From a virus (taxonomy: Duplodnaviria > Heunggongvirae > Uroviricota > Caudoviricetes): 12,094 nt of DNA. The DNA lies in IMG/VR virus record IMGVR_UViG_2657245634_000013, positions 1 to 12,094 of that record, one strand, 5' to 3'. Made by a program: the position numbers and the translations under genes. Below are positions 1,224 to 12,094 of the stretch, in pieces. The notes beneath the pieces were generated by a model. It saw only the letters and a program-made list of their open reading frames with translations, was not told the origin of the DNA and did not search any database. How positions within the stretch are numbered: position 1 is the stretch's first letter; every line of letters begins with the position of its first letter.

Positions 1224-1730
1224 TTATGCAGCCCTCACAATATAATTAAAGGCGATGTTACGTGGACGGTTTTCATTAGCTGTTGGCACGACACGAGAGG
1301 CGTCGAATCCAAGGTCATCGGTTTTGCCTATATCAGTTGTGTTATTCGGCATTCTCGCAGATCGTGTTCCTGCATCATAAAAAGCCCCTCTGATTGCATC
1401 AAAAGACATACCGATCCCGCCATCTGCGAATCCCTCAATATTTCTTATTGCATCCCCCTGTGAAGATAATAATTGTCGCCCGGCATCCACTCCACGTCCG
1501 TCATCCCAGCCACGAATAAATTCACCGCGTAAATCAGGCAATTTATTTGTCGGATAAACCTTTGCCAGTTCCGGGTATTCTTCAGCAGAAAAAGCCGCAC
1601 CGTTGCATTTCAGCCAGCCAGTAGGCGGTGTGGCTGAAGGCCACGGAACAGGCACACCAACGGGTAATGCCGAACCTTCTCCCAAACCAACGTTTATGAA
1701 AATGCAGAGATAACGGCTAACTGGCATCAT
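1224..1730 (-). CDS. Tail-fibre variable C-terminal exon (Mu S'v / P2 H C-terminus-like), silent orientation; the real tail-fibre portion is about 1224-1675
   Basis: Contains PVGVPVPWPSATPPTGWLKCNGAAFSAEEYPELAKVYPTNKLPDLRG and the C-terminal ...NIAFNYIVRAA, both characteristic of P2 H / Mu S variable domains. The first ~18 codons lie outside the crossover site and the frame is closed by TAA just upstream, as expected for the non-expressed copy of an invertible tail-fibre gene. Confidence 0.8.
   Translation of the reverse strand: MMPVSRYLCIFINVGLGEGSALPVGVPVPWPSATPPTGWLKCNGAAFSAEEYPELAKVYPTNKLPDLRGEFIRGWDDGRGVDAGRQLLSSQGDAIRNIEGFADGGIGMSFDAIRGAFYDAGTRSARMPNNTTDIGKTDDLGFDASRVVPTANENRPRNIAFNYIVRAA
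1676..1701. other. Putative DNA-invertase crossover site (gix/hix/pix-like)
   Basis: TTCTCCCAAACC-AA-CGTTTATGAAAA: two imperfectly inverted 12-bp half-sites around a 2-bp core, similar to hixL TTCTTGAAAACC-AA-GGTTTTTGATAA and gix TTATCCAAAACC-TC-GGTTTACAGGAA (quoted from memory). It sits at the constant/variable boundary of the tail-fibre exon and next to the invertase gene. Confidence 0.55.
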
Positions 1731-1757
1731 CTCCGGTTTTTATTCAGGGGGATGATC

Positions 1758-2351
1758 ATGCTTATTGGCTATGTACGCGTGTCAACAAATGACCAGAACA
1801 CGGAATTGCAGAGTAATGCGCTGGAGTGTGCAGGATGTGAGCTGATTTTTGAGGATAAAATCAGCGGCTCGAAGTCCGACAGGCCGGGGCTGAAAAAACT
1901 GCTCAGGACACTATCGGCAGGAGACACGTTGGTTGTCTGGAAGCTGGACAGACTGGGGCGCAGTATGCGGCATCTCGTTACGCTGATAGAAGAGTTGCGC
2001 CAGCGTGGTGTGAATTTCAGAAGCCTGACTGACAGTATTGATACCAGTACCCCAATGGGCCGTTTCTTTTTTCATGTCATGGGTGCCCTGGCTGAAATGG
2101 AGCGAGAACTCATTGTCGAGCGGACACGCGCAGGACTGGAAGCGGCCAGAGCCAAAGGTCGTATTGGTGGCAGACGACCGAAACTCACCGCGAGAGAGTG
2201 GGAGCAGGCAGGACGGTTGCTGGCTGCGGGGGAATCTCGTCAACGTGTGGCGCTGATTTTTGATATTGGCCTGTCCACGCTCTATAAAAAATTCCCCTCA
2301 TCAGCGACAAAGAATAAATTGTGTCATCCCTTAGCCAACCGGGACAAATAG
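1758..2351 (+). CDS. Serine DNA invertase of the Gin/Hin/Pin/Cin family
   Basis: MLIGYVRVSTNDQNTELQ...VVWKLDRLGRSMRHL...MGRFFFHVMGALAEMERELIVERT...GRIGGRRPKL...STLYKKFP: resolvase/invertase catalytic N-terminus with the catalytic Ser in VRVSTNDQ and a C-terminal HTH; closely resembles e14 Pin as recalled. The ATG at 1758 is preferred over 1752 because AGGGGG at 1744-1749 gives better RBS spacing. Confidence 0.9.
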   Translation: MLIGYVRVSTNDQNTELQSNALECAGCELIFEDKISGSKSDRPGLKKLLRTLSAGDTLVVWKLDRLGRSMRHLVTLIEELRQRGVNFRSLTDSIDTSTPMGRFFFHVMGALAEMERELIVERTRAGLEAARAKGRIGGRRPKLTAREWEQAGRLLAAGESRQRVALIFDIGLSTLYKKFPSSATKNKLCHPLANRDK

Positions 2352-2380
2352 CCTGACATCTCCGGCACAACTGAAAATAC
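2321..2380 (+). promoter_or_regulatory. Possible Ogr-dependent P2-type late promoter for the FI-FII-E-T-U-D operon
   Basis: TGT(2323-2325)-N12-AAC partial dyad about 50 bp upstream of a -10-like GAAAAT (2374-2379), 30 bp before the FI start. This resembles the P2 late-promoter architecture (TGT-N12-ACA centred near -55) but the match is imperfect. Confidence 0.25.
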
Positions 2381-2410
2381 CACTCACCCATTAACCACGG
2401 AGTTAAACGG

Positions 2411-3601
2411 ATGAGTGACTATCATCACGGCGTGCAGGTGCTGGAGATTAACGACGGCACCCGCGTCATTTCCACCGTATCCACTGCCATTGTCGGCATG
2501 GTCTGCACGGCCAGCGATGCGGATGCGGAAATCTTCCCCCTCAATAAACCGGTGCTGATCACCAATGTGCAGAGCGCGATTGCAAAGGCCGGTAAAAAAG
2601 GCACGCTGGCGGCATCGTTGCAGGCCATCGCTGACCAGTCAAAACCGGTCACCGTTGTCGTGCGCGTGGAAGACGGCACCGGCGACGACGAAGAAACGAA
2701 ACTCGCGCAGACCGTTTCCAATATCATCGGCACCACTGACGAAAACGGTCAGTACACCGGACTGAAAGCCCTGCTGGCGGCGGAGTCGGTTACCGGTGTT
2801 AAACCGCGTATTCTCGGTGTGCCGGGACTGGACACCAAAGAGGTGGCGGTTGCACTGGCATCAGTCTGTCAGAAGCTGCGCGCTTTCGGGTATATCAGCG
2901 CATGGGGCTGTAAAACCATTTCCGAGGTGAAAGCCTACCGCCAGAATTTCAGCCAGCGTGAGCTGATGGTCATCTGGCCGGATTTCCTCGCATGGGATAC
3001 GGTCGCCAGTACCACCGCCACCGCGTATGCCACCGCCCGTGCGCTGGGCCTGCGCGCTAAAATCGACCAGGAGCAGGGCTGGCATAAAACGCTGTCCAAC
3101 GTCGGGGTAAACGGTGTTACCGGCATCAGTGCCTCTGTATTCTGGGATTTGCAGGAGTCCGGCACCGATGCTGACCTGTTGAACGAGTCAGGTGTCACAA
3201 CGCTGATTCGCCGTGACGGTTTCCGATTCTGGGGTAACCGTACCTGCTCTGATGACCCGCTGTTCCTCTTTGAAAACTACACCCGCACCGCGCAGGTGCT
3301 GGCCGACACGATGGCTGAGGCGCACATGTGGGCGGTGGACAAGCCCATCACCGCAACGCTGATTCGCGACATCGTTGACGGCATCAATGCCAAATTTCGT
3401 GAGCTGAAAACAAACGGCTATATCGTGGATGCGACCTGCTGGTTCAGCGAAGAATCCAACGATGCGGAAACCCTTAAGGCCGGAAAACTGTATATCGACT
3501 ACGACTATACCCCGGTTCCTCCTCTTGAAAACCTGACCCTGCGCCAGCGTATTACCGATAAATACCTGGCAAATCTGGTCACCTCGGTTAACAGCAATTA
3601 A
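2411..3601 (+). CDS. FI: Contractile tail sheath protein (P2 gpFI)
   Basis: 396-aa ORF beginning MSDYHHGVQVLEINDGTRVISTVSTAIVGMVCTASDADAE..., essentially matching P2 FI as recalled; same length as P2 FI; GGAG RBS at 2400-2403. Confidence 0.95.
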   Translation: MSDYHHGVQVLEINDGTRVISTVSTAIVGMVCTASDADAEIFPLNKPVLITNVQSAIAKAGKKGTLAASLQAIADQSKPVTVVVRVEDGTGDDEETKLAQTVSNIIGTTDENGQYTGLKALLAAESVTGVKPRILGVPGLDTKEVAVALASVCQKLRAFGYISAWGCKTISEVKAYRQNFSQRELMVIWPDFLAWDTVASTTATAYATARALGLRAKIDQEQGWHKTLSNVGVNGVTGISASVFWDLQESGTDADLLNESGVTTLIRRDGFRFWGNRTCSDDPLFLFENYTRTAQVLADTMAEAHMWAVDKPITATLIRDIVDGINAKFRELKTNGYIVDATCWFSEESNDAETLKAGKLYIDYDYTPVPPLENLTLRQRITDKYLANLVTSVNSN

Positions 3602-3613
3602 GGAGCCTGACCG

Positions 3614-4132
3614 ATGGCAATGCCGCGCAAACTCAAGTTAATGAACGTCTTTCTGAACGGCTACAGCTATCAGGGCGTTGCAAAGTCCGTCACGCTGCCA
3701 AAACTGACCCGTAAACTCGAAAACTATCGCGGTGCGGGGATGAACGGAAGCGCACCGGTAGACCTCGGCCTTGATGACGATGCGCTGTCAATGGAGTGGT
3801 CGCTCGGGGGCTTCCCGGATTCGGTTATCTGGGAGCTTTACGCCGCAACCGGCGTGGATGCCGTACCGATTCGTTTTGCAGGCTCTTACCAGCGCGACGA
3901 TACCGGCGAAACGGTAGCCGTTGAAGTGGTCATGCGTGGACGTCAGAAAGAAATCGACACCGGCGAGGGTAAACAGGGAGAAGACACCGAGTCGAAAATC
4001 TCCGTAGTCTGCACCTATTTCCGGCTGACGATGGACGGTAAGGAGCTGGTCGAAATCGACACCATCAACATGATTGAGAAGGTGAACGGCGTCGACCGGC
4101 TGGAGCAACACCGCCGCAATATCGGCCTGTAA
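3614..4132 (+). CDS. FII: Tail tube protein (P2 gpFII)
   Basis: 172-aa ORF MAMPRKLKLMNVFLNGYSYQGVAKSVTLPKLTRKLENYRGAG... directly after the sheath gene; AAGGAG RBS at 3599-3604; length equals P2 FII. Confidence 0.95.
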   Translation: MAMPRKLKLMNVFLNGYSYQGVAKSVTLPKLTRKLENYRGAGMNGSAPVDLGLDDDALSMEWSLGGFPDSVIWELYAATGVDAVPIRFAGSYQRDDTGETVAVEVVMRGRQKEIDTGEGKQGEDTESKISVVCTYFRLTMDGKELVEIDTINMIEKVNGVDRLEQHRRNIGL

Positions 4133-4188
4133 TTTTCATCCGGTCAGTCAGGCTGACCGGTTAACCCCGATTCAGAAGTGAGAAAACC

Positions 4189-4464
4189 ATGAACAAAGAA
4201 AATGTCATTACCCTGGACAATCCGGTCAAACGTGGTGAGCAGGTTATCGAACAGGTCACGCTGATGAAACCCAATGCCGGGACGCTGCGCGGTGTCAGTC
4301 TGGCAGCGGTCGCGAACTCCGAAGTCGATGCACTGATTAAGGTGCTGCCGCGCATGACGGCACCGATGCTGACCGAGCAGGAAGTCGCCGCGCTGGAACT
4401 GCCTGACCTTGTGGCGCTGGCCGGTAAGGTGGTCGGTTTTTTGTCGCCGAACTCGGTGCAGTGA
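4189..4464 (+). CDS. E: Tail assembly chaperone (P2 gpE)
   Basis: 91-aa ORF MNKENVITLDNPVKRGEQVIEQVTLMKPNAG... in the position and size of P2 E; contains the TTTTTTG slippery heptamer near its 3' end. Confidence 0.9.
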   Translation: MNKENVITLDNPVKRGEQVIEQVTLMKPNAGTLRGVSLAAVANSEVDALIKVLPRMTAPMLTEQEVAALELPDLVALAGKVVGFLSPNSVQ

Positions 4465-4616
4465 CGTTTCCAAAAAATCTCTCGGTCGATGACCTGATGG
4501 CGGATGTGGCAGTGATATTTCACTGGCCGCCATCAGAACTGTATCCCATGAGCCTGACCGAACTCATCACATGGCGCGAAAAGGCGCTCCGGCGAAGCGG
4601 AAACACGAATGAGTAA
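4189..4616 (+). CDS. Tail assembly chaperone frameshift product (P2 gpE+E'), made by -1 ribosomal frameshift at T_TTT_TTG (4437-4443)
   Basis: After a -1 slip at 4437-4443 the new frame stays open and reads ...FVAELGAVTFPKNLSVDDLMADVAVIFHWPPSELYPMSLTELITWREKALRRSGNTNE, ending at TAA 4614-4616 and overlapping the T start. This is the conserved E/E' (lambda G/GT-type) arrangement. Confidence 0.8.
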
Positions 4617-7056
4617 CAATGTAAAATTACAGGTATTGCTCAGGGCTGTTGACCAGGCATCCCGCCCGTTTAAATCCATCCGCACAGCGAGTAAGTCGCT
4701 GTCGGGGGATATCCGGGAAACACAAAAATCACTGCGCGAGCTGAACGGTCAGGCATCCCGTATTGAGGGATTCCGCAAGACCAGTGCACAGCTCGCCGTG
4801 ACTGGTCATGCACTTGAAAAGGCACGGCAGGAGGCCGAAGCCCTTGCCACACAGTTTAAAAATACCGAACGTCCGACCCGTGCTCAGGCGAAAGTGCTGG
4901 AATCCGCAAAGCGTGCGGCGGAGGACTTACAGGCGAAATATAACCGCCTGACGGATTCCGTTAAACGCCAGCAGCGGGAACTGGCCGCTGTGGGAATTAA
5001 TGCCCGCAATCTTGCACATGATGAGCAGGGACTGAAAAACCGTATCAGTGAAACCACCGCACAACTTAACCGTCAGCGCGACGCGCTGGCGCGTGTCAGT
5101 GCGCAACAGGCAAAACTTAACGCAGTAAAACAGCGTTATCAGGCCGGAAAGGAACTGGCCGGAAATATGGCCTCAGTAGGCGCTGCCGGTGTGGGGATTG
5201 CGGCGGCGGGAACGATGGCCGGAGTTAAGTTGCTGATGCCCGGTTATGAGTTTGCGCAGAAAAACTCAGAATTGCAGGCCGTGCTAGGTGTGGCAAAAGA
5301 CTCCGCCGAAATGGCTGCACTACGCAAGCAGGCGCGCCAGCTCGGCGACAACACCGCCGCCTCGGCGGATGATGCTGCCGGTGCACAGATTATTATCGCG
5401 AAAGCCGGTGGGGATGTTGATGCCATTCAGGCGGCAACGCCGGTCACGCTGAATATGGCGCTGGCGAACCGTCGCACGATGGAAGAAAACGCCGCCCTGC
5501 TGATGGGGATGAAATCCGCCTTTCAGCTTTCAAACGATAAGGTCGCTCATATCGGGGATGTTCTCTCCATGACGATGAACAAAACCGCCGCCGATTTTGA
5601 CGGCATGAGCGATGCGCTGACCTATGCCGCACCTGTGGCAAAAAATGCCGGTGTCAGCATTGAAGAAACCGCCGCAATGGTCGGGGCGCTGTATGATGCA
5701 AAAATCACAGGCTCAATGGCGGGGACGGGAAGCCGTGCCGTGTTAAGCCGCCTGCAGGCACCGACGGGAAAAGCATGGGATGCACTCAAAGAGCTTGGAG
5801 TGAAAACCTCAGACAGCAAGGGAAACACCCGACCAGTATTTACCATTCTGAAAGAAATGCAGGCCAGTTTTGAGAAAAACCGGCTCGGTACTGCCCAGCA
5901 GGCTGAATACATGAAAACTATTTTCGGGGAGGAGGCCAGCTCAGCCGCCGCCGTGCTGATGACTGCCGCCTCAACCGGAAAGCTGGACAAACTGACCGCT
6001 GCGTTTAAAGCCTCAGACGGGAAGACCGCCGAGCTGGTAAATATCATGCAGGACAACCTCGGCGGTGACTTTAAAGAGTTTCAGTCCGCTTATGAGGCGG
6101 TGGGGACTGACCTGTTTGACCAGCAGGAAGGCGCACTGCGTAAGCTCACGCAGACGGCCACAAAGTATGTGTTAAAACTCGACGGCTGGATACAGAAAAA
6201 CAAATCACTGGCGTCAACCATCGGCATCATTGTCGGTGGTGCACTGGCACTGATTGGTGTCATCGGTGCCATTGGCCTCGTAGCCTGGCCGGTTATCACC
6301 GGCATCAATGCCATCATCGCGGCAGCAGGCGCAATGGGGGCAGTCTTCACGACGGTTGGCAGTGCTGTTATGACCGCCATCGGGGCTATTAGCTGGCCGG
6401 TTGTGGCCGTGGTGGCCGCAATTGTCGCCGGGGCGTTGCTTATCCGTAAATACTGGGAGCCTGTCAGCACATTCTTTGGCGGTGTGGTGGAAGGGCTGAA
6501 AGCGGCATTTGCGCCGGTGGGGGAACTGTTCACGCCACTTAAGCCGGTGTTTGACTGGCTGGGCGAAAAGTTACAGGCCGCGTGGCAGTGGTTTAAAAAC
6601 CTGATCGCCCCGGTTAAAGCCATCCAGGACACCCTGAACCGTTGCCGTGACACGGGCGTCATGTTCGGGCAGGCACTGGCTGACGCGTTGATGCTGCCGC
6701 TTAATGCGTTCAACAAACTGCGCAGTGGTATTGACTGGGTACTGGAAAAACTCGGTGTTATCAACAAAGAGTCAGACACACTTGACCAGACCGCCGCCAG
6801 AACTCATGCCGCCACGTATGGCACCGGTGGTTATATTCCGGCGACCAGCTCTTATGCAGGCTATCAGGCTTATCAGCCGGTTACGGCACCGGCTGGCCGC
6901 TCTTATGTGGACCAGAGTAAAAACGAATATCACATCAGTCTGACGGGCGGTACTGCGCCGGGGACTCAGCTCGACCGCCAGTTACAGGATGCGCTCGAAA
7001 AATACGAGCGGGATAAACGTGCGCGCGCCCGTGCCAGCATGATGCATGACGGTTAA
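4609..7056 (+). CDS. T: Tail tape measure protein (P2 gpT)
   Basis: 815-aa ORF with an N-terminal coiled-coil-rich region and a long Gly/Ala-rich hydrophobic segment (aa about 530-600), typical of tape measure proteins. Same length and position as P2 T. Confidence 0.95.
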   Translation: MSNNVKLQVLLRAVDQASRPFKSIRTASKSLSGDIRETQKSLRELNGQASRIEGFRKTSAQLAVTGHALEKARQEAEALATQFKNTERPTRAQAKVLESAKRAAEDLQAKYNRLTDSVKRQQRELAAVGINARNLAHDEQGLKNRISETTAQLNRQRDALARVSAQQAKLNAVKQRYQAGKELAGNMASVGAAGVGIAAAGTMAGVKLLMPGYEFAQKNSELQAVLGVAKDSAEMAALRKQARQLGDNTAASADDAAGAQIIIAKAGGDVDAIQAATPVTLNMALANRRTMEENAALLMGMKSAFQLSNDKVAHIGDVLSMTMNKTAADFDGMSDALTYAAPVAKNAGVSIEETAAMVGALYDAKITGSMAGTGSRAVLSRLQAPTGKAWDALKELGVKTSDSKGNTRPVFTILKEMQASFEKNRLGTAQQAEYMKTIFGEEASSAAAVLMTAASTGKLDKLTAAFKASDGKTAELVNIMQDNLGGDFKEFQSAYEAVGTDLFDQQEGALRKLTQTATKYVLKLDGWIQKNKSLASTIGIIVGGALALIGVIGAIGLVAWPVITGINAIIAAAGAMGAVFTTVGSAVMTAIGAISWPVVAVVAAIVAGALLIRKYWEPVSTFFGGVVEGLKAAFAPVGELFTPLKPVFDWLGEKLQAAWQWFKNLIAPVKAIQDTLNRCRDTGVMFGQALADALMLPLNAFNKLRSGIDWVLEKLGVINKESDTLDQTAARTHAATYGTGGYIPATSSYAGYQAYQPVTAPAGRSYVDQSKNEYHISLTGGTAPGTQLDRQLQDALEKYERDKRARARASMMHDG

Positions 7057-7070
7057 GGAGGTGACGAAAA

Positions 7071-7550
7071 ATGATGCTCGCGTTAGGTATGTTTGTTTTT
7101 ATGCGCCAGACGCTGCCACACCAGACCATGCAGCGTGAATCAGATTATCGCTGGCCGTCAAATTCCCGTATCGGTAAACGGGATGCCTTTCAGTTTCTCG
7201 GTGTTGGCGAGGAAAACATCACGCTTGCCGGTGTGCTTTATCCCGAACTGACCGGCGGAAAGCTGACGATGACCACGCTCAGGCTGATGGCAGAGGAAGG
7301 CCGGGCGTGGCCGTTGCTGGATGGCACAGGCATGATTTACGGCATGTATGTCATCAGCAGGGTGAGTGAAACAGGGAGTATTTTCTTTGCAGACGGCACA
7401 CCCCGGAAAATTGATTTTACGCTGTCGCTCACCCGCGTGGATGAATCACTGGCCGCGCTTTATGGCGATATCGGTAAACAGGCGGAGTCGCTCATCGGTA
7501 AAGCTGGCAGTATGGCGACCAGATTCACGGGTATGACGGGGGCGGGATAA
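7071..7550 (+). CDS. U: Tail protein (P2 gpU)
   Basis: 159-aa ORF after T with AAGGAGG RBS at 7055-7061; its stop overlaps the D start (TAATG), indicating translational coupling. Length and order as in P2. Confidence 0.9.
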   Translation: MMLALGMFVFMRQTLPHQTMQRESDYRWPSNSRIGKRDAFQFLGVGEENITLAGVLYPELTGGKLTMTTLRLMAEEGRAWPLLDGTGMIYGMYVISRVSETGSIFFADGTPRKIDFTLSLTRVDESLAALYGDIGKQAESLIGKAGSMATRFTGMTGAG

Positions 7551-8713
7551 TGCTGGATGCACTGACATTTGATGCAGGCAGTACGCTGACGCCGGATTAC
7601 ATGCTGATGCTCGACAGCAGGGATATTACCGGCAATATCAGCGACCGTCTGATGAGTATGACCCTGACGGATAGCCGGGGCTTTGAGGCTGACCAGCTTG
7701 ATATTGAACTGAACGATGCCGACGGGCAGGTCGGGCTGCCGGTTCGTGGTGCTGTTCTGACGGTGTATATCGGCTGGAAAGGTTTTGCCCTGGTATGCAA
7801 AGGGAAATTCACCGTTGATGAGGTTGAACACCGGGGCGCGCCGGATGTTGTCACCATCCGCGCCCGGAGTGCAGATTTTCGCGGGACGCTCAATTCCCGC
7901 CGTGAAGGCTCATGGCATGACACCACGCTCGGTGCGATTGTTGAGGCGATAGCCTCCCGTAACAGGCTGAAAGCCAGTGTCGCTCCGTCACTGGCCGGAA
8001 TTAAAATCCCGCACATCGACCAGTCGCAGGAGTCTGATGCGAAATTCCTGACCCGTCTTGCAGAACGCAACGGCGGTGAGGTGTCGGTAAAAATGGGAAA
8101 ACTGTTGTTTCTCAAAGCGGGGCAGGGGGTGACGGCCAGCGGTAAAAAAATCCCGCAGATTACCATCACCCGCAGCGACGGCGACCGCCATCATTTTGCG
8201 ATTGCTGACCGTGGAGCCTATACCGGCGTAACGGCAAAGTGGTTACACACCAAAGACCCGAAGCCGCAAAAGCAGAAGGTAAAACTGAAACGCAAAAAGA
8301 AAGAAAAACACCTGCGCGCACTGGAGCACCCGAAAGCAAAACCGGTCAGGCAGAAGAAAGCGCCAAAAGTACCGGAAGCGCGCGAAGGTGAATACATGGC
8401 CGGTGAGGCTGACAACGTTTTTGCCCTGACCACGGTATATGCCACGAAAGCACAGGCCATGCGTGCCGCTCAGGCGAAGTGGGATAAACTGCAACGGGGC
8501 GTTGCGGAGTTCTCCATCAGCCTGGCTACCGGTCGTGCAGATATTTACACGGAAACACCGGTCAGAGTGTCAGGCTTTAAGCGCGTCATAGACGAGCAGG
8601 ACTGGACCATCACTAAGGTGACACATTTTCTGAATAATAGCGGCTTCACGACGTCCTTAGAGCTTGAGGTCAGGCTTTCTGATGTGGAGTACGAAACAGA
8701 AGATGATGAGTGA
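7550..8713 (+). CDS. D: Tail protein D (P2 gpD, late control gene D)
   Basis: 387-aa ORF MLDALTFDAGSTLTPDYMLMLDSRDITGNISDRLMSMTLTDSRGFEADQLDIELNDADG... with a Lys-rich linker; length and position as in P2 D. Confidence 0.95.
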   Translation: MLDALTFDAGSTLTPDYMLMLDSRDITGNISDRLMSMTLTDSRGFEADQLDIELNDADGQVGLPVRGAVLTVYIGWKGFALVCKGKFTVDEVEHRGAPDVVTIRARSADFRGTLNSRREGSWHDTTLGAIVEAIASRNRLKASVAPSLAGIKIPHIDQSQESDAKFLTRLAERNGGEVSVKMGKLLFLKAGQGVTASGKKIPQITITRSDGDRHHFAIADRGAYTGVTAKWLHTKDPKPQKQKVKLKRKKKEKHLRALEHPKAKPVRQKKAPKVPEAREGEYMAGEADNVFALTTVYATKAQAMRAAQAKWDKLQRGVAEFSISLATGRADIYTETPVRVSGFKRVIDEQDWTITKVTHFLNNSGFTTSLELEVRLSDVEYETEDDE

Positions 8714-8794
8714 CGTTTTTATTTTATCTATTTGTTTTATAAGGATAAATTAACTAAAATGGCACCATCAACAAAACCGGAAGAGGTGCTCGCG

Positions 8795-9013
8795 ATGTTT
8801 CATTGTCCTTTATGCCAGCATGCCGCACATGCGCGTACAAGCCGCTATATCACTGACACGACAAAAGAGCGTTATCATCAGTGCCAGAACGTGAATTGCA
8901 GTGCCACGTTCATCACTTATGAGTCGGTACAGCGATACATCGTGAAGCCGGGAGAAGTCCACGCCGTAAGGCCGCACCCGTTGCCGTCAGGGCAGCAAAT
9001 TATGTGGATGTGA
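8795..9013 (+). CDS. ogr: Late gene transcriptional activator Ogr (zinc-finger)
   Basis: 72-aa product MFHCPLCQHAAHARTSRYITDTTKERYHQCQNVNCSATFITYESVQRYIVKPGEVHAVRPHPLPSGQQIMWM with the Cys-X2-Cys...Cys-X4-Cys zinc-binding motif. The ORF-track start at 8732 is an in-frame upstream extension; the ATG at 8795 gives the canonical 72-aa Ogr. Confidence 0.95.
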   Translation: MFHCPLCQHAAHARTSRYITDTTKERYHQCQNVNCSATFITYESVQRYIVKPGEVHAVRPHPLPSGQQIMWM

Positions 9014-9023
9014 TCACAAAAAT

Positions 9024-9050
9024 AGCCCCTCAGTTGAGGGGCTTTATTTA
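9024..9050 (+). terminator. Rho-independent terminator downstream of ogr
   Basis: Stem AGCCCCTC / GAGGGGCT with loop AGTT, followed by TTTATTTA, starting 11 bp after the ogr stop. Confidence 0.7.
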
Positions 9051-9056
9051 TGGTCG

Positions 9057-9075
9057 ATGTGGACGTTATGTGGAC
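9057..9075 (+). repeat. Tandem direct repeat ATGTGGAC-gtt-ATGTGGAC (11-bp spacing); candidate integrase arm-type binding sites in the prophage att arm
   Basis: Exact 8-bp repeat at 9057-9064 and 9068-9075, in non-coding DNA between the last phage gene and host sequence. Confidence 0.45.
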
Positions 9076-9081
9076 AGTGGT

Positions 9082-9103
9082 TGATATAAATCCATTTATA
9101 TCA
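9082..9103. repeat. Perfect 10-bp inverted repeat TGATATAAAT-cc-ATTTATATCA in the att region
   Basis: Exact palindrome read directly from the sequence; AT-rich; lies between the direct repeats and the host-like terminator. Confidence 0.6.
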
Positions 9104-9111
9104 TCAGGTTA

Positions 9112-9168
9112 GGTGCTTTTTTGTGACACCATCCCTGTCTTCCCCCACATGATGTGGGGGTTTTTTTT
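9112..9168 (+). ncRNA. Possible CpxQ-like sRNA remnant (3' UTR of cpxP); 5' boundary uncertain
   Basis: Terminator hairpin plus upstream GACACCATCCCTGTCTTCCCCC, recalled as the conserved part of CpxQ; no cpxP coding sequence is visible upstream, consistent with the prophage junction lying at the cpxP 3' end. This is from memory and unverified. Confidence 0.35.
9142..9168 (+). terminator. Rho-independent terminator, probably the host cpxP terminator (3' end of the CpxQ sRNA region)
   Basis: Stem CCCCCACAT / ATGTGGGGG followed by eight T residues. The preceding GACACCATCCCTGTCTTCCCCC matches my recollection of the cpxP 3' UTR / CpxQ, and fieF lies directly downstream as in the E. coli cpxP-fieF arrangement. 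Confidence 0.6.
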
Positions 9169-9249
9169 ATCCTCAATTTGCCTGCTGCTTAATGCATTGC
9201 AGATGATTTGCTTCCGTTATACTAGCGTCAGTTGATAGCGGGAGTATTT

Positions 9250-9867
9250 ATGAATCAATCTTATGGACGGCTGGTCAGTCGGGCGGCGATTGCTGCGACG
9301 GCGATGGCTTCGTTGCTATTGCTGATTAAAATTTTTGCATGGTGGTATACCGGGTCGGTGAGTATTCTCGCCGCGCTGGTGGATTCGCTGGTGGATATCG
9401 GCGCGTCGTTGACGAATTTACTGGTGGTGCGATATTCCCTGCAACCTGCCGACGATAATCACTCGTTTGGTCACGGTAAAGCAGAGTCCCTCGCGGCGCT
9501 GGCGCAAAGTATGTTTATCTCCGGTTCGGCACTATTCCTGTTTTTGACGGGTATTCAACATCTGATATCTCCAACACCGATGACAGATCCAGGCGTCGGG
9601 GTTATCGTGACAATTGTGGCGCTAATTTGTACGATTATCCTTGTCTCGTTTCAGCGTTGGGTGGTGCGCCGGACGCAAAGCCAGGCGGTGCGGGCTGATA
9701 TGCTACATTACCAGTCTGATGTTATGATGAACGGCGCAATTCTGCTGGCGCTGGGGTTGTCCTGGTACGGCTGGCATCGCGCCGATGCTCTGTTTGCATT
9801 GGGAATCGGCATCTATATTTTATATAGCGCGTTACGCATGGGATATGAGGCGGTACAGTCATTACTG
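9250..9867 (+). pseudogene. fieF: Cation-diffusion-facilitator ferrous iron/zinc efflux protein FieF (YiiP), 3'-truncated after about codon 206
   Basis: [86 protein letters not shown]... matches FieF up to ...[10 protein letters not shown]; GGAG RBS at 9242-9245. After about 9867 the frame continues only as antisense read-through of the autotransporter gene, and the cytoplasmic C-terminal domain (expected DRALPDEERQ...) is absent. Confidence 0.85.
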
Positions 9868-12063
9868 GCTGTGACCATTCATATCCAGTTCAGTCTCTGC
9901 CGCCAGACGCAGTTCATGGGTATTACCCAACACGTTATCGTTATTCAACAAAAGCGTCCCACTGCGCAGATCGGTAACACCGGTATAGTCGTTGTCTTTG
10001 TTAGAAAGCGATACGGTCTGACCCTTCTGGCTGCTGAATGCCAGGTCACCACTGCCGGTAATCTTTGCGCTGAGATCGGCGGCATTCTCGCTTTTACCGT
10101 TAGAGCTCAGCACCAGAGCATCGCTGTCGGTAGCGTGTAAATCAAGCTGGGTCAGGCCGTAACCGATATACAGACCGTCATTGTTTACCCCACTCGTCAG
10201 ACGATAGTCGTAAGTGCCGACGGCCGCTTTTTGCCCATTCTGCTGAATATCACGTTGGGCACTGCTGGAGAGGATTTGCCCATTTTTATCCTGCAATTGC
10301 AGATTGCCCGCATCGCCCAGAACTTCCGCACCTTGCGCATCAACCAACTTAATGGTGCTGTTACCATCATCGACTTCAGTGAGCGATAACGCAGAGTCAA
10401 TATCACGAGATACTGAGCTTACAACGTCACTGTCAGAAACCTGAATCACACCCTCGCCGCGCAAATCCAGCGTTTTACTAACGTTGACCGTCCCTTCTGT
10501 CATCTGTGCACCTGCTGTCAGGGCACCAAAATCAACGGTTCCGCCGGAGAATCCCAAAGTGCTAATGGAGTGAGCGCCCTTACCCACTATTACCTGGCTT
10601 CCCTGACCCGCAGTGATCCCGCCTCTCTGCAGAAACTCAGCATTCTTTTCCAGGTTAAATGTCGTGTTCTGGAACGCCAGTGAACCCTGGAACCAGTCTG
10701 TATAAGCAAACTCATCGAAGGAGAATTCGTGATTCCCCATGTTTATTTCAACAATACCTCTACCTTGAAGATCGTTATCAAATACCCAATCTTTATTGGC
10801 ATTGATTTGCAGTTTGCCATCAACATCCAGGTCCGCACGGCCGATGTTCTTGTCTTCAGAAATAACCGCGACAGCACCAGAAGCGACATCAATATATCCG
10901 CTGAATGCATAGTTATTGCCGGTCAGTGCCACTGTCCCACTGTCGATACTTATTGTACCATTGCCGGAAATCTTATTGGCAAAGGTCATGCTATCGTCAG
11001 CCTTCAGGTGTAATTTCCCGCGGTTGTTGATCTCTGCTGTACCTATATTTTGGGTGATCCCTAAAGCGCCATTTTGCTCAATTTTGACTTTACCACTAAA
11101 GGCAGAGTTATCACCGGTTAAGTAAGTCGTGCCATTGAGCGCATTGATATAGCCCAGGCCCTCGCTGCCACTGACAATATCCGCGGAAATAGTCGCGTTT
11201 TTATCCGTGTGGTTTAAGGTGATTTTCTTATCGGATGTCTTTGCCCACACAAACTCAATTTTTTCGGCATCAATAATCCCTGCAGCCTTCGCAGCACTTC
11301 CTTCCTGTGCACCTAACGCTAACTCAGAGTTGGTGCTTAAACTAATTTTCGGTGCGGATATTTTACCTCCATCTGATACGACTAATGTTGTATCAGAACG
11401 TTGGTCGTAATAACCCAGGCTAATATGTTCACGAGCATTAACTTCACCGCCGTTATTAACTGACAGGTACTGATTACCACCGTAACTGCCGTAAACGCCC
11501 ATAAAGAAGGTTTTAGAATTTACCTGGCTGCCTTCACCACTGACATTTCCCTGCAAATAGGTCAGACGGCTGGTGCCCTTAACATGGATTTTGCCGCCGT
11601 TGGAGACATTAAAATAGCCGCGATCGTGTCTCATGCCTGAGTTTGACTCATACAAATCATCAGCATATAACTCGCTGCCAGCATTGGAGACATTCAGGAA
11701 CCCCGTACCTTTCAGCAAAAAGTTAAGTGGGCCATTGATAGTTACCTTTCCTCCGGTAATATCCAACCCACCACCAGAAGCGAGAGTCAGACGCGGACGG
11801 GAAGTATCTGTCGCATTGATTACCAGATTGGCATTGTCAGTCACCGTAATACGGTAATCGATGCTCTGGTTCTCTTTGCCAAAATCAATAGTTTTATCCT
11901 GGTTTACGATGACATCATCGGCGAATACCAGAGATGAATATAAACTTATCGCGCTAATTAAAACAGCCCGGGACTTTTTTCCTTTTACTCTGCTCCCCAG
12001 CTCCGAGCAGACGCTCCAACAGTTACGGGACCTGTTCCACTTTAGCCGATATATTTTATTCAT
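9862..12063 (-). pseudogene. Autotransporter adhesin (type Va), signal peptide plus beta-helical passenger domain, 3'-truncated (no beta-barrel translocator)
   Basis: N-terminus MNKIYRLKWNRSRNCWSVCSELGSRVKGKKS... is an extended signal peptide region (ESPR) typical of autotransporters, followed by a Gly/Asn/Ser/Thr-rich repetitive passenger (GNxxxSG-type beta-helix repeats). The ORF ends ...ELDMNGHSQ with its stop codon supplied by fieF-derived sequence at 9862-9864. Lower GC than the flanking sequence. The likely start is the ATG at 12061-12063, not the track start at 12087. Confidence 0.75.
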
Positions 12064-12094
12064 CACAATCTCCAGCAATACATCCAAATAAAAC

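Follow-up and report, generated by a model that had tools for sequence, protein, structure and literature searches.

The window, i.e. the entire stretch of 12,094 nucleotides that was analysed, carries on its minus strand an open reading frame (ORF) that begins like an autotransporter adhesin with an extended signal peptide (ESPR) and stops without a translocator domain. This raises the questions of whether the frame represents a short protein in its own right or the remnant of a longer gene, why it stops where it does, and whether the DNA join responsible exists in the chromosome of the organism or only in the assembled contig. The ORF stops at 733 amino acids because the sequence of ehaA ends at position 9865 and is joined there to fieF. 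The frame very probably comprises the first 733 codons of ehaA, encoding the AIDA-I-type (type Va) adhesin EhaA, and is non-functional as written. Accordingly, the gene is an already known one and does not represent a new kind of autotransporter.

A megablast search of 5,426 complete E. coli genomes matched positions 9865–12094 at 100 % identity to sequences annotated as "ehaA: autotransporter adhesin EhaA" in many E. coli. The full-length coding sequence, as in strain 602354 and the O111:H21 strain 15A, comprises 3,984 nt, codes for 1327 amino acids and is located between betT and pdeL. As an accessory gene, ehaA occurs in 1,403 of the complete genomes (26 %); over codons 1–733, the allele in the window shares 97 % identity with the one of O157:H7 EDL933. 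Overall, the contig contains 55 % of ehaA and neither of its native neighbours. The alignment thus identifies the family and its normal length, with homologues of 1327 amino acids and the β-barrel at the C-terminus, rather than proteins of naturally about 740 amino acids with a barrel inside.

The coordinates assigned to the ORF in a preliminary description of this DNA (9862–12063) are correct, running from the ATG at 12063 to the TAA at 9864–9862 (Table 1). The length of 741 amino acids given there has to be revised, since it is counted from the first upstream TTG, i.e. over the frame 9862–12087 of the six-frame ORF list, the translation of which opens ...MNKIYRLKWNRSRNCWSVCSELGSRVKGKKSRAVLISAISLYSSLVFA. 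The ATG at 12063 agrees with the RefSeq annotation of the orthologue and is preceded by the Shine-Dalgarno motif GGAG; the true product of the ehaA fragment is, therefore, a protein of 733 amino acids. In the deposited source record, the fragment is annotated as a 743-aa product reaching the contig end.

Table 1. Coordinates of features in the 12,094-nt window
Feature	Position	Strand	Basis or remark
Cix-like site TTCTCCCAAACCAACGTTTATGAAAA	1677-1702		
Cin/Gin-type serine invertase gene	1758-2351		
fieF (yiiP) codons 1-206 of 300, transmembrane domain only	9250..9868	+	Pfam Cation_efflux 14-205
Chimeric ORF: FieF 1-206 followed by ~90 residues of antisense ehaA	9250..10140	+	ORF list, junction alignment, NCBIfam match
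TAA stop of the shortened ORF	9862..9864	-	Antisense of fieF Leu-205 codon TTA; three-way alignment
Breakpoint; 4-bp microhomology CTGG common to native fieF and antisense native ehaA	9865..9868	.	Three-way alignment
ehaA codons 1-733 of 1327 (signal peptide and N-terminal 55 % of passenger)	9865..12063	-	100 % nucleotide identity
Extended (ESPR) signal peptide, residues 1-48, ending ...SSLVFA	11920..12063	-	Pfam ESPR; cleavage site predicted from sequence
Native ehaA 5' leader, 31 bp, Shine-Dalgarno GGAG at 12073-12070	12064..12094	-	100 % collinear with native loci to the last base

Among Pfam profiles, ESPR (PF13018) was detected at residues 1–38 of the 733-aa product (E 4.3e-10; 40.3 bits versus a cutoff of 25), next to a passenger repeat at sub-threshold level only. 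Neither the AC_1 autochaperone nor the Autotransporter domain (PF03797) was found by Pfam in this product, and no profile of a C-terminal β-barrel (PF03797 / TIGR01414) matched it. This agrees with the initial classification as an ESPR-type autotransporter adhesin gene devoid of its translocator. The full-length EhaA orthologue possesses ESPR at 1–38, AC_1 at 839–944 (E 3.8e-28), a Pro-rich linker at about 963–999 and the PF03797 β-domain at 1046–1305 (E 3.7e-46), with the NCBIfam model TIGR01414 spanning 853–1327. Solved homologues found by sequence all align downstream of residue 733 of full-length EhaA: a passenger fragment of IcsA (5ke1) to 734–966, the IcsA autochaperone (3ml3) to 802–966 and the AIDA-I translocator (4mee) to 1001–1327.

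An AlphaFold model of the 733-aa product, built from a 13-sequence alignment (pLDDT 77, pTM 0.74), consists nearly entirely of short β-strands; the signal peptide (residues 1–48) has a pLDDT below 50, and confidence is low past residue ~550. Its best matches in the PDB according to Foldseek are β-helix passengers, namely those of Ag43 (7koh; E 9.5e-6), UpaB, pertactin, Hap and TibA. The predicted fold thereby confirms a β-helical passenger, of which only the N-terminal part is present, as had been proposed from the reading frame beforehand.

The call of a loss of function draws on general knowledge of type Va secretion. With the ESPR signal peptide retained, the fragment would be exported by Sec to the periplasm. 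Missing are the passenger from residue 734 to ~838, the autochaperone (839–944), the Pro-rich linker and the 12-stranded barrel (1046–1305). Because autochaperone, linker and barrel are lost, the fragment would be neither inserted by BAM nor threaded across the outer membrane, its passenger would not fold at the cell surface, and degradation in the periplasm would follow. Judged by this pathway, ehaA as written would be a null allele; the earlier view that its product could not be secreted by the type Va route is shared here, AC_1 and barrel both being absent.

Start codon, Shine-Dalgarno motif and signal peptide are all intact, as would be expected of a naturally short, functional protein that is secreted or resides in the periplasm. 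This interpretation was nevertheless rejected and retains next to no probability: the sequence equals the 5' part of a 1327-aa gene base for base, its stop codon is contributed by the antisense strand of an unrelated gene, and the 733-aa form is absent from the records searched, exact-sequence protein look-ups having yielded no match to either the 733-aa or the 741-aa version of the EhaA fragment.

The adhesin EhaA, a biofilm autotransporter, has been characterised in enterohaemorrhagic E. coli O157:H7 (Wells et al. 2008, Environ Microbiol 10:589, as cited in PMC9289746) and belongs to the AIDA-I-type group together with IcsA, MisL, ShdA and YfaL (PMC9289746). The copy in the window is the same gene and shares its ESPR signal peptide and the beginning of its β-helix passenger, but it lacks codons 734–1327 (end of the passenger, autochaperone, linker and β-barrel) and is detached from the native betT-ehaA-pdeL locus. 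Other decayed alleles of ehaA occur in public E. coli assemblies, including a 507-aa form with 633 member sequences, a 514-aa form with 65 member sequences and forms of 839–852 amino acids. Also on record are products in which ehaA sequence is combined with an EAL domain of pdeL type or a DUF1116 domain of yahG type. Like the fragment described here, the decayed alleles are N-terminal EhaA fragments with ESPR and without barrel. None of them, however, ends at codon 733 or joins fieF, and where fusions occur the partners adjoin ehaA instead of residing at a locus 854 kb away.

The ehaA fragment has a GC content of 47.4 %, which is lower than in the fieF piece (52.2 %) and in the prophage (53.7 %). 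The region is, thus, indeed AT-richer than its surroundings, as remarked in the preliminary description, but the difference is modest and refers to sequences other than the native neighbours betT and pdeL. Since the neighbours in the window are not native to ehaA, the comparison says nothing about a rearrangement. Low GC content and occurrence in about a quarter of the genomes (26 %) are consistent with ehaA being accessory and probably horizontally acquired.

A three-way alignment with the native fieF and ehaA sequences revealed that the window switches cleanly from one gene to the other with only CTGG in common: all fieF matches end at 9868 and all ehaA matches begin at 9865. Native fieF reads ...CAGTCATTACTGGATCGCGCATTGCC... 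across codon 206 and native ehaA ...GTGCCCACGGTCTGGCTGTGACCATT... across codon 733. Codon 206 of fieF is joined to ehaA in opposite orientation, the last ehaA codon on the minus strand being Q733 (CAG, 9867–9865). Neither an IS element nor any longer repeat or homology was found at the 9865–9868 junction. A scan of positions 8900–10000 against Rfam gave only matches below gathering thresholds, and a scan for promoters and terminators found nothing bearing on the ehaA ORF above shuffled expectation.

The presence of a single junction with a clean switch implies that ehaA and fieF were both cut by one breakpoint. The 94 last codons of fieF are removed, and the ZT_dimer domain, which intact copies carry next to Cation_efflux, is missing from the FieF of the window; the truncation of fieF noted previously is therefore real at the level of the contig, with codons 1–206 of 300 remaining. 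Correspondingly, the NCBIfam equivalog model for FieF scores 423 bits, below its cutoff of 447, and covers 1–210 of 300. Compared to the cation diffusion facilitator FieF/YiiP, a family characterised by six transmembrane helices and a C-terminal cytoplasmic dimerisation domain, residues 1–206 constitute the native transmembrane domain (100 % DNA identity), but the C-terminal cytoplasmic ZT_dimer is replaced by ~90 unrelated residues. The resulting 296-aa chimeric FieF had no match in exact-sequence look-ups. A fieF remnant lacking the cytoplasmic dimerisation and metal-sensing domain is most likely inactive.

The window equals the entire 12,094-bp contig CCBW01000016.1 of the draft assembly GCA_000939035.1, as evident from an exact match of the tape-measure protein and identical sequence. 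Positions 1676–9868 comprise a P2-like prophage (tail sheath, tube, tape measure, U, D and ogr) followed by fieF and are 99.99 % identical to strain 15A, the closest complete relative, with one mismatch at 5692. Three further drafts (GCA_000946335.1, GCA_000946315.1 and GCA_001373235.1) are 100 % identical to the window over 6.8–7.0 kb, and the two of them that reach fieF run on into native fieF-pfkA-sbp. The assemblies with the identical prophage are fragmented into contigs of 7–9 kb, and one of these contigs terminates in Ns.

Expressed in coordinates of strain 15A, where fieF (2,908,810–2,909,712) and ehaA (2,053,471–2,057,454) both lie on the minus strand, the window descends to 2,909,094 and then ascends from 2,055,256. 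This geometry is that of one end of an 853.8-kb inversion (2,055,256–2,909,093). With oriC of strain 15A located between mioC and mnmG at 3.124 Mb, the inverted segment lies within one replichore. It holds two rrn operons, rplKAJL-rpoBC and tuf, all of which are co-directional with replication in strain 15A. The other end of such an inversion is predicted to read GAGCGTGCCCACGGTCTGGATCGCGCATTGCCTGATG and to encode a 621-aa product. A homologue search with this product reached a best identity of 65 % and was dominated by barrels of paralogous autotransporters, true EhaA itself being unlisted. Given a real inversion, the severed 3' half of ehaA would lie behind antisense fieF, without promoter, start codon and signal peptide, and would also be dead.

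An enzyme capable of DNA inversion is encoded in the window itself, a Cin/Gin-type serine invertase accompanied by a cix-like site (Table 1). Since the tail-fibre segment has the opposite orientation in strain 15A, the invertase is or was active, and it could have inverted the larger segment via quasi-cix sites in fieF and ehaA. Such an origin was rejected as highly improbable. The best matches to the 26-bp site within 40 bp of the breakpoints amount to 11/26 and 10/26, which is below the mean of 12.5 for shuffled sequence. Cin/Gin-type invertases, moreover, need an enhancer, and the two partners, 854 kb apart, would be far from it.

Two explanations for the junction have to be weighed. According to the first, which is given about an even chance, the junction arose artificially, fieF having been linked to ehaA through a chimeric template or read or through a greedy mis-join by the assembler, and both genes are intact in the genome. 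The junction is confined to one short contig of the fragmented draft GCA_000939035.1, and the drafts with 100 % identical flanks have an intact fieF-pfkA arrangement. It is found in none of the 5,426 complete E. coli genomes, and the observed 38-mer across it had no exact match among metagenome contigs or contigs of species-representative genomes; the same holds for the 37-mer predicted for the reciprocal junction. The truncated proteins, likewise, were matched nowhere else in the exact look-ups. Inverted joins at a few bases of microhomology are typical of template-switch chimeras, and the present join fits this pattern. An artefact is less easily reconciled with the extent of the contig, which continues for 9.9 kb and 2.2 kb on either side of the junction without ambiguous bases or errors, and with the behaviour of graph assemblers, which normally break at a low-coverage chimeric branch and rarely read through it. 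The 4-bp overlap, finally, would be equally expected from illegitimate recombination in vivo.

According to the second explanation, which is a serious candidate though held at somewhat less than even probability, illegitimate recombination at CTGG/CCAG inverted ~854 kb between fieF in the Ori macrodomain and ehaA in the right non-structured region. To the same tentative degree, both genes would have been killed, and in this isolate only. The orientation of the two halves exactly matches one end of an inversion in 15A coordinates, and the segment lies entirely on one side of oriC. An overlap of at least 4 bp occurred in 1.7 % of simulated random splices of the fieF and ehaA loci (P = 0.017); its rarity points to guidance by microhomology rather than to arbitrary concatenation. 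Microhomology is, however, typical of chimeras formed in vitro and of recombination in vivo alike and, therefore, does not discriminate between the two. Both genes are non-essential, and ehaA decays often elsewhere, as documented by the shortened alleles and fusions described above. On the other hand, the inversion would place the two rrn operons, rplKAJL-rpoBC and tuf in an orientation head-on to replication, it was never found in the other genomes and contigs searched, and close relatives are normally arranged. Repeats usually mediate the large inversions that occur naturally in E. coli, but none is present at the junction.

The reorientation of rrn operons was initially regarded as an argument that an intrareplichore inversion of this kind would be strongly deleterious. 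This argument was dropped, since the class is tolerated in the short term: engineered intrareplichore inversions of 668–927 kb in E. coli K-12, which extended from the Ori macrodomain into the right non-structured region and flipped one to four rrn operons, did not impair growth strongly (Esnault et al. 2007, PMC2134941). A recent inversion private to this isolate is, therefore, biologically possible, even if the same authors expect such inverted layouts to be lost in the long term (PMC2134941). The engineered inversions resemble the one considered here in size class, chromosome arm, combination of macrodomains and flipping of rrn operons, but were generated by site-specific recombination at inserted att sites, whereas the present one, if real, would be a spontaneous event at 4 bp of microhomology disrupting two genes.

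Taken together, a chimeric join is considered slightly more likely than a genuine inversion, the remaining probability falling to more complex real structures. The proposal that ehaA is a pseudogene created by the same rearrangement that truncated fieF is, thus, upheld in that one junction cuts both genes, and not in that a rearrangement of the chromosome is required, a chimeric contig being at least as likely. Should the junction be artificial, ehaA and fieF would both be intact in the organism and there would be no pseudogene at all. If the inversion is real, one event inactivates the adhesin EhaA and the metal efflux pump FieF and reverses two rrn operons together with rpoBC; it would then represent a natural counterpart of the inversions engineered by Esnault et al. 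and a modest example of a large repeat-free inversion extending from the Ori macrodomain to the right non-structured region. The ehaA fragment as such carries little biological weight: EhaA has been described before, along with its domain architecture and the frequent decay of its gene, and a passenger that has lost its barrel is a classic null allele. Its value lies in quality control: neither a short adhesin nor a FieF variant should be entered as new in the annotation of this contig, and read-level support for the junction is needed before a structural variant is recorded.

The two ends of the contig differ in nature. At the left, positions 1 to ~266 represent the terminus of an ISEc12 element of the IS21 family, a common cause of contig termination. 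The right end is located in unique sequence, 31 bp 5' of the ehaA start, and the ehaA promoter lies beyond it.

The prophage carried by the window is P2-like and lies directly upstream of fieF; next to the genes for sheath, tube, tape measure and Ogr listed below, it also contains the U and D genes. Adjacency of ogr and fieF was detected in 691 of the 5,426 complete E. coli genomes searched, and the site upstream of fieF is therefore a common integration site.

Features of the window outside the ehaA fragment
Feature	Window position	Remark
Right end of ISEc12 element	1-266	IS21 family
IstB, C-terminal fragment	1-168	part of ISEc12
Invertible tail-fibre segment	254-1702	prophage
P2-like prophage	1676-9230	directly upstream of fieF
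cix/gix-like crossover site	1677-1702	TTCTCCCAAACCAACGTTTATGAAAA
Serine recombinase gene	1758-2351	Resolvase and HTH_7 domains
Sheath gene	2411-3601	prophage
Tube gene	3614-4132	prophage
Tail-assembly chaperone pair	4189-4616	P2-type
Phage_TAC_7 gene	4189-4464	part of chaperone pair
Tape measure gene	4609-7056	prophage
ogr	8795-9013	prophage
Strong terminator-like hairpin 1	9024-9043	between ogr and fieF
Strong terminator-like hairpin 2	9142-9160	CCCCCACATGATGTGGGGG followed by T run

The invertible tail-fibre segment is oriented opposite to its copy in strain 15A (O111:H21), with which it shares 99.6% identity, and the crossover site is adjoined by the serine recombinase gene. At the left end of the window, the ISEc12 end adjoins phage tail-fibre assembly genes, and the element appears to have inserted into the tail-fibre cassette of the prophage; the contig stops at this position because of the ISEc12 end.

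The window corresponds in full to the deposited contig CCBW01000016.1 (draft assembly GCA_000939035.1, 12,094 nucleotides), in the annotation of which the ehaA fragment is represented by a 743-aa product reaching the contig end, while fieF is without a gene call. Likewise uncalled in this record is the overlapping 51-aa GpE-family gene of the chaperone pair, which is annotated in several related contigs. The layout of the chaperone pair would match that known for the programmed frameshift of P2 E/E+E'. As a hint on the quality of related drafts, bases 1-47 of the related L009 contig (CDRU01000003.1, GCA_000946335.1) mismatch the sheath gene context and include five Ns, as if the consensus had collapsed or were in conflict where the contig ends.

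Of the two hairpins between ogr and fieF, the second is located upstream of fieF in sequence that is either chromosomal or att-proximal. All Rfam matches to sRNAs in this hairpin region remained below threshold (Hrs1, 31.8 bits vs 56.4; also STnc100).

Other decayed ehaA alleles are widespread among public protein clusters (handles P0016, P0017, P0021 and P0022), including N-terminal fragments of 507 aa (633 member sequences) and 514 aa (65 member sequences). In two further products, ehaA sequence is combined with a domain of yahG type (DUF1116) or of pdeL type (EAL), a pattern suggestive of deletions that arose locally within the betT-ehaA-pdeL-yah region.
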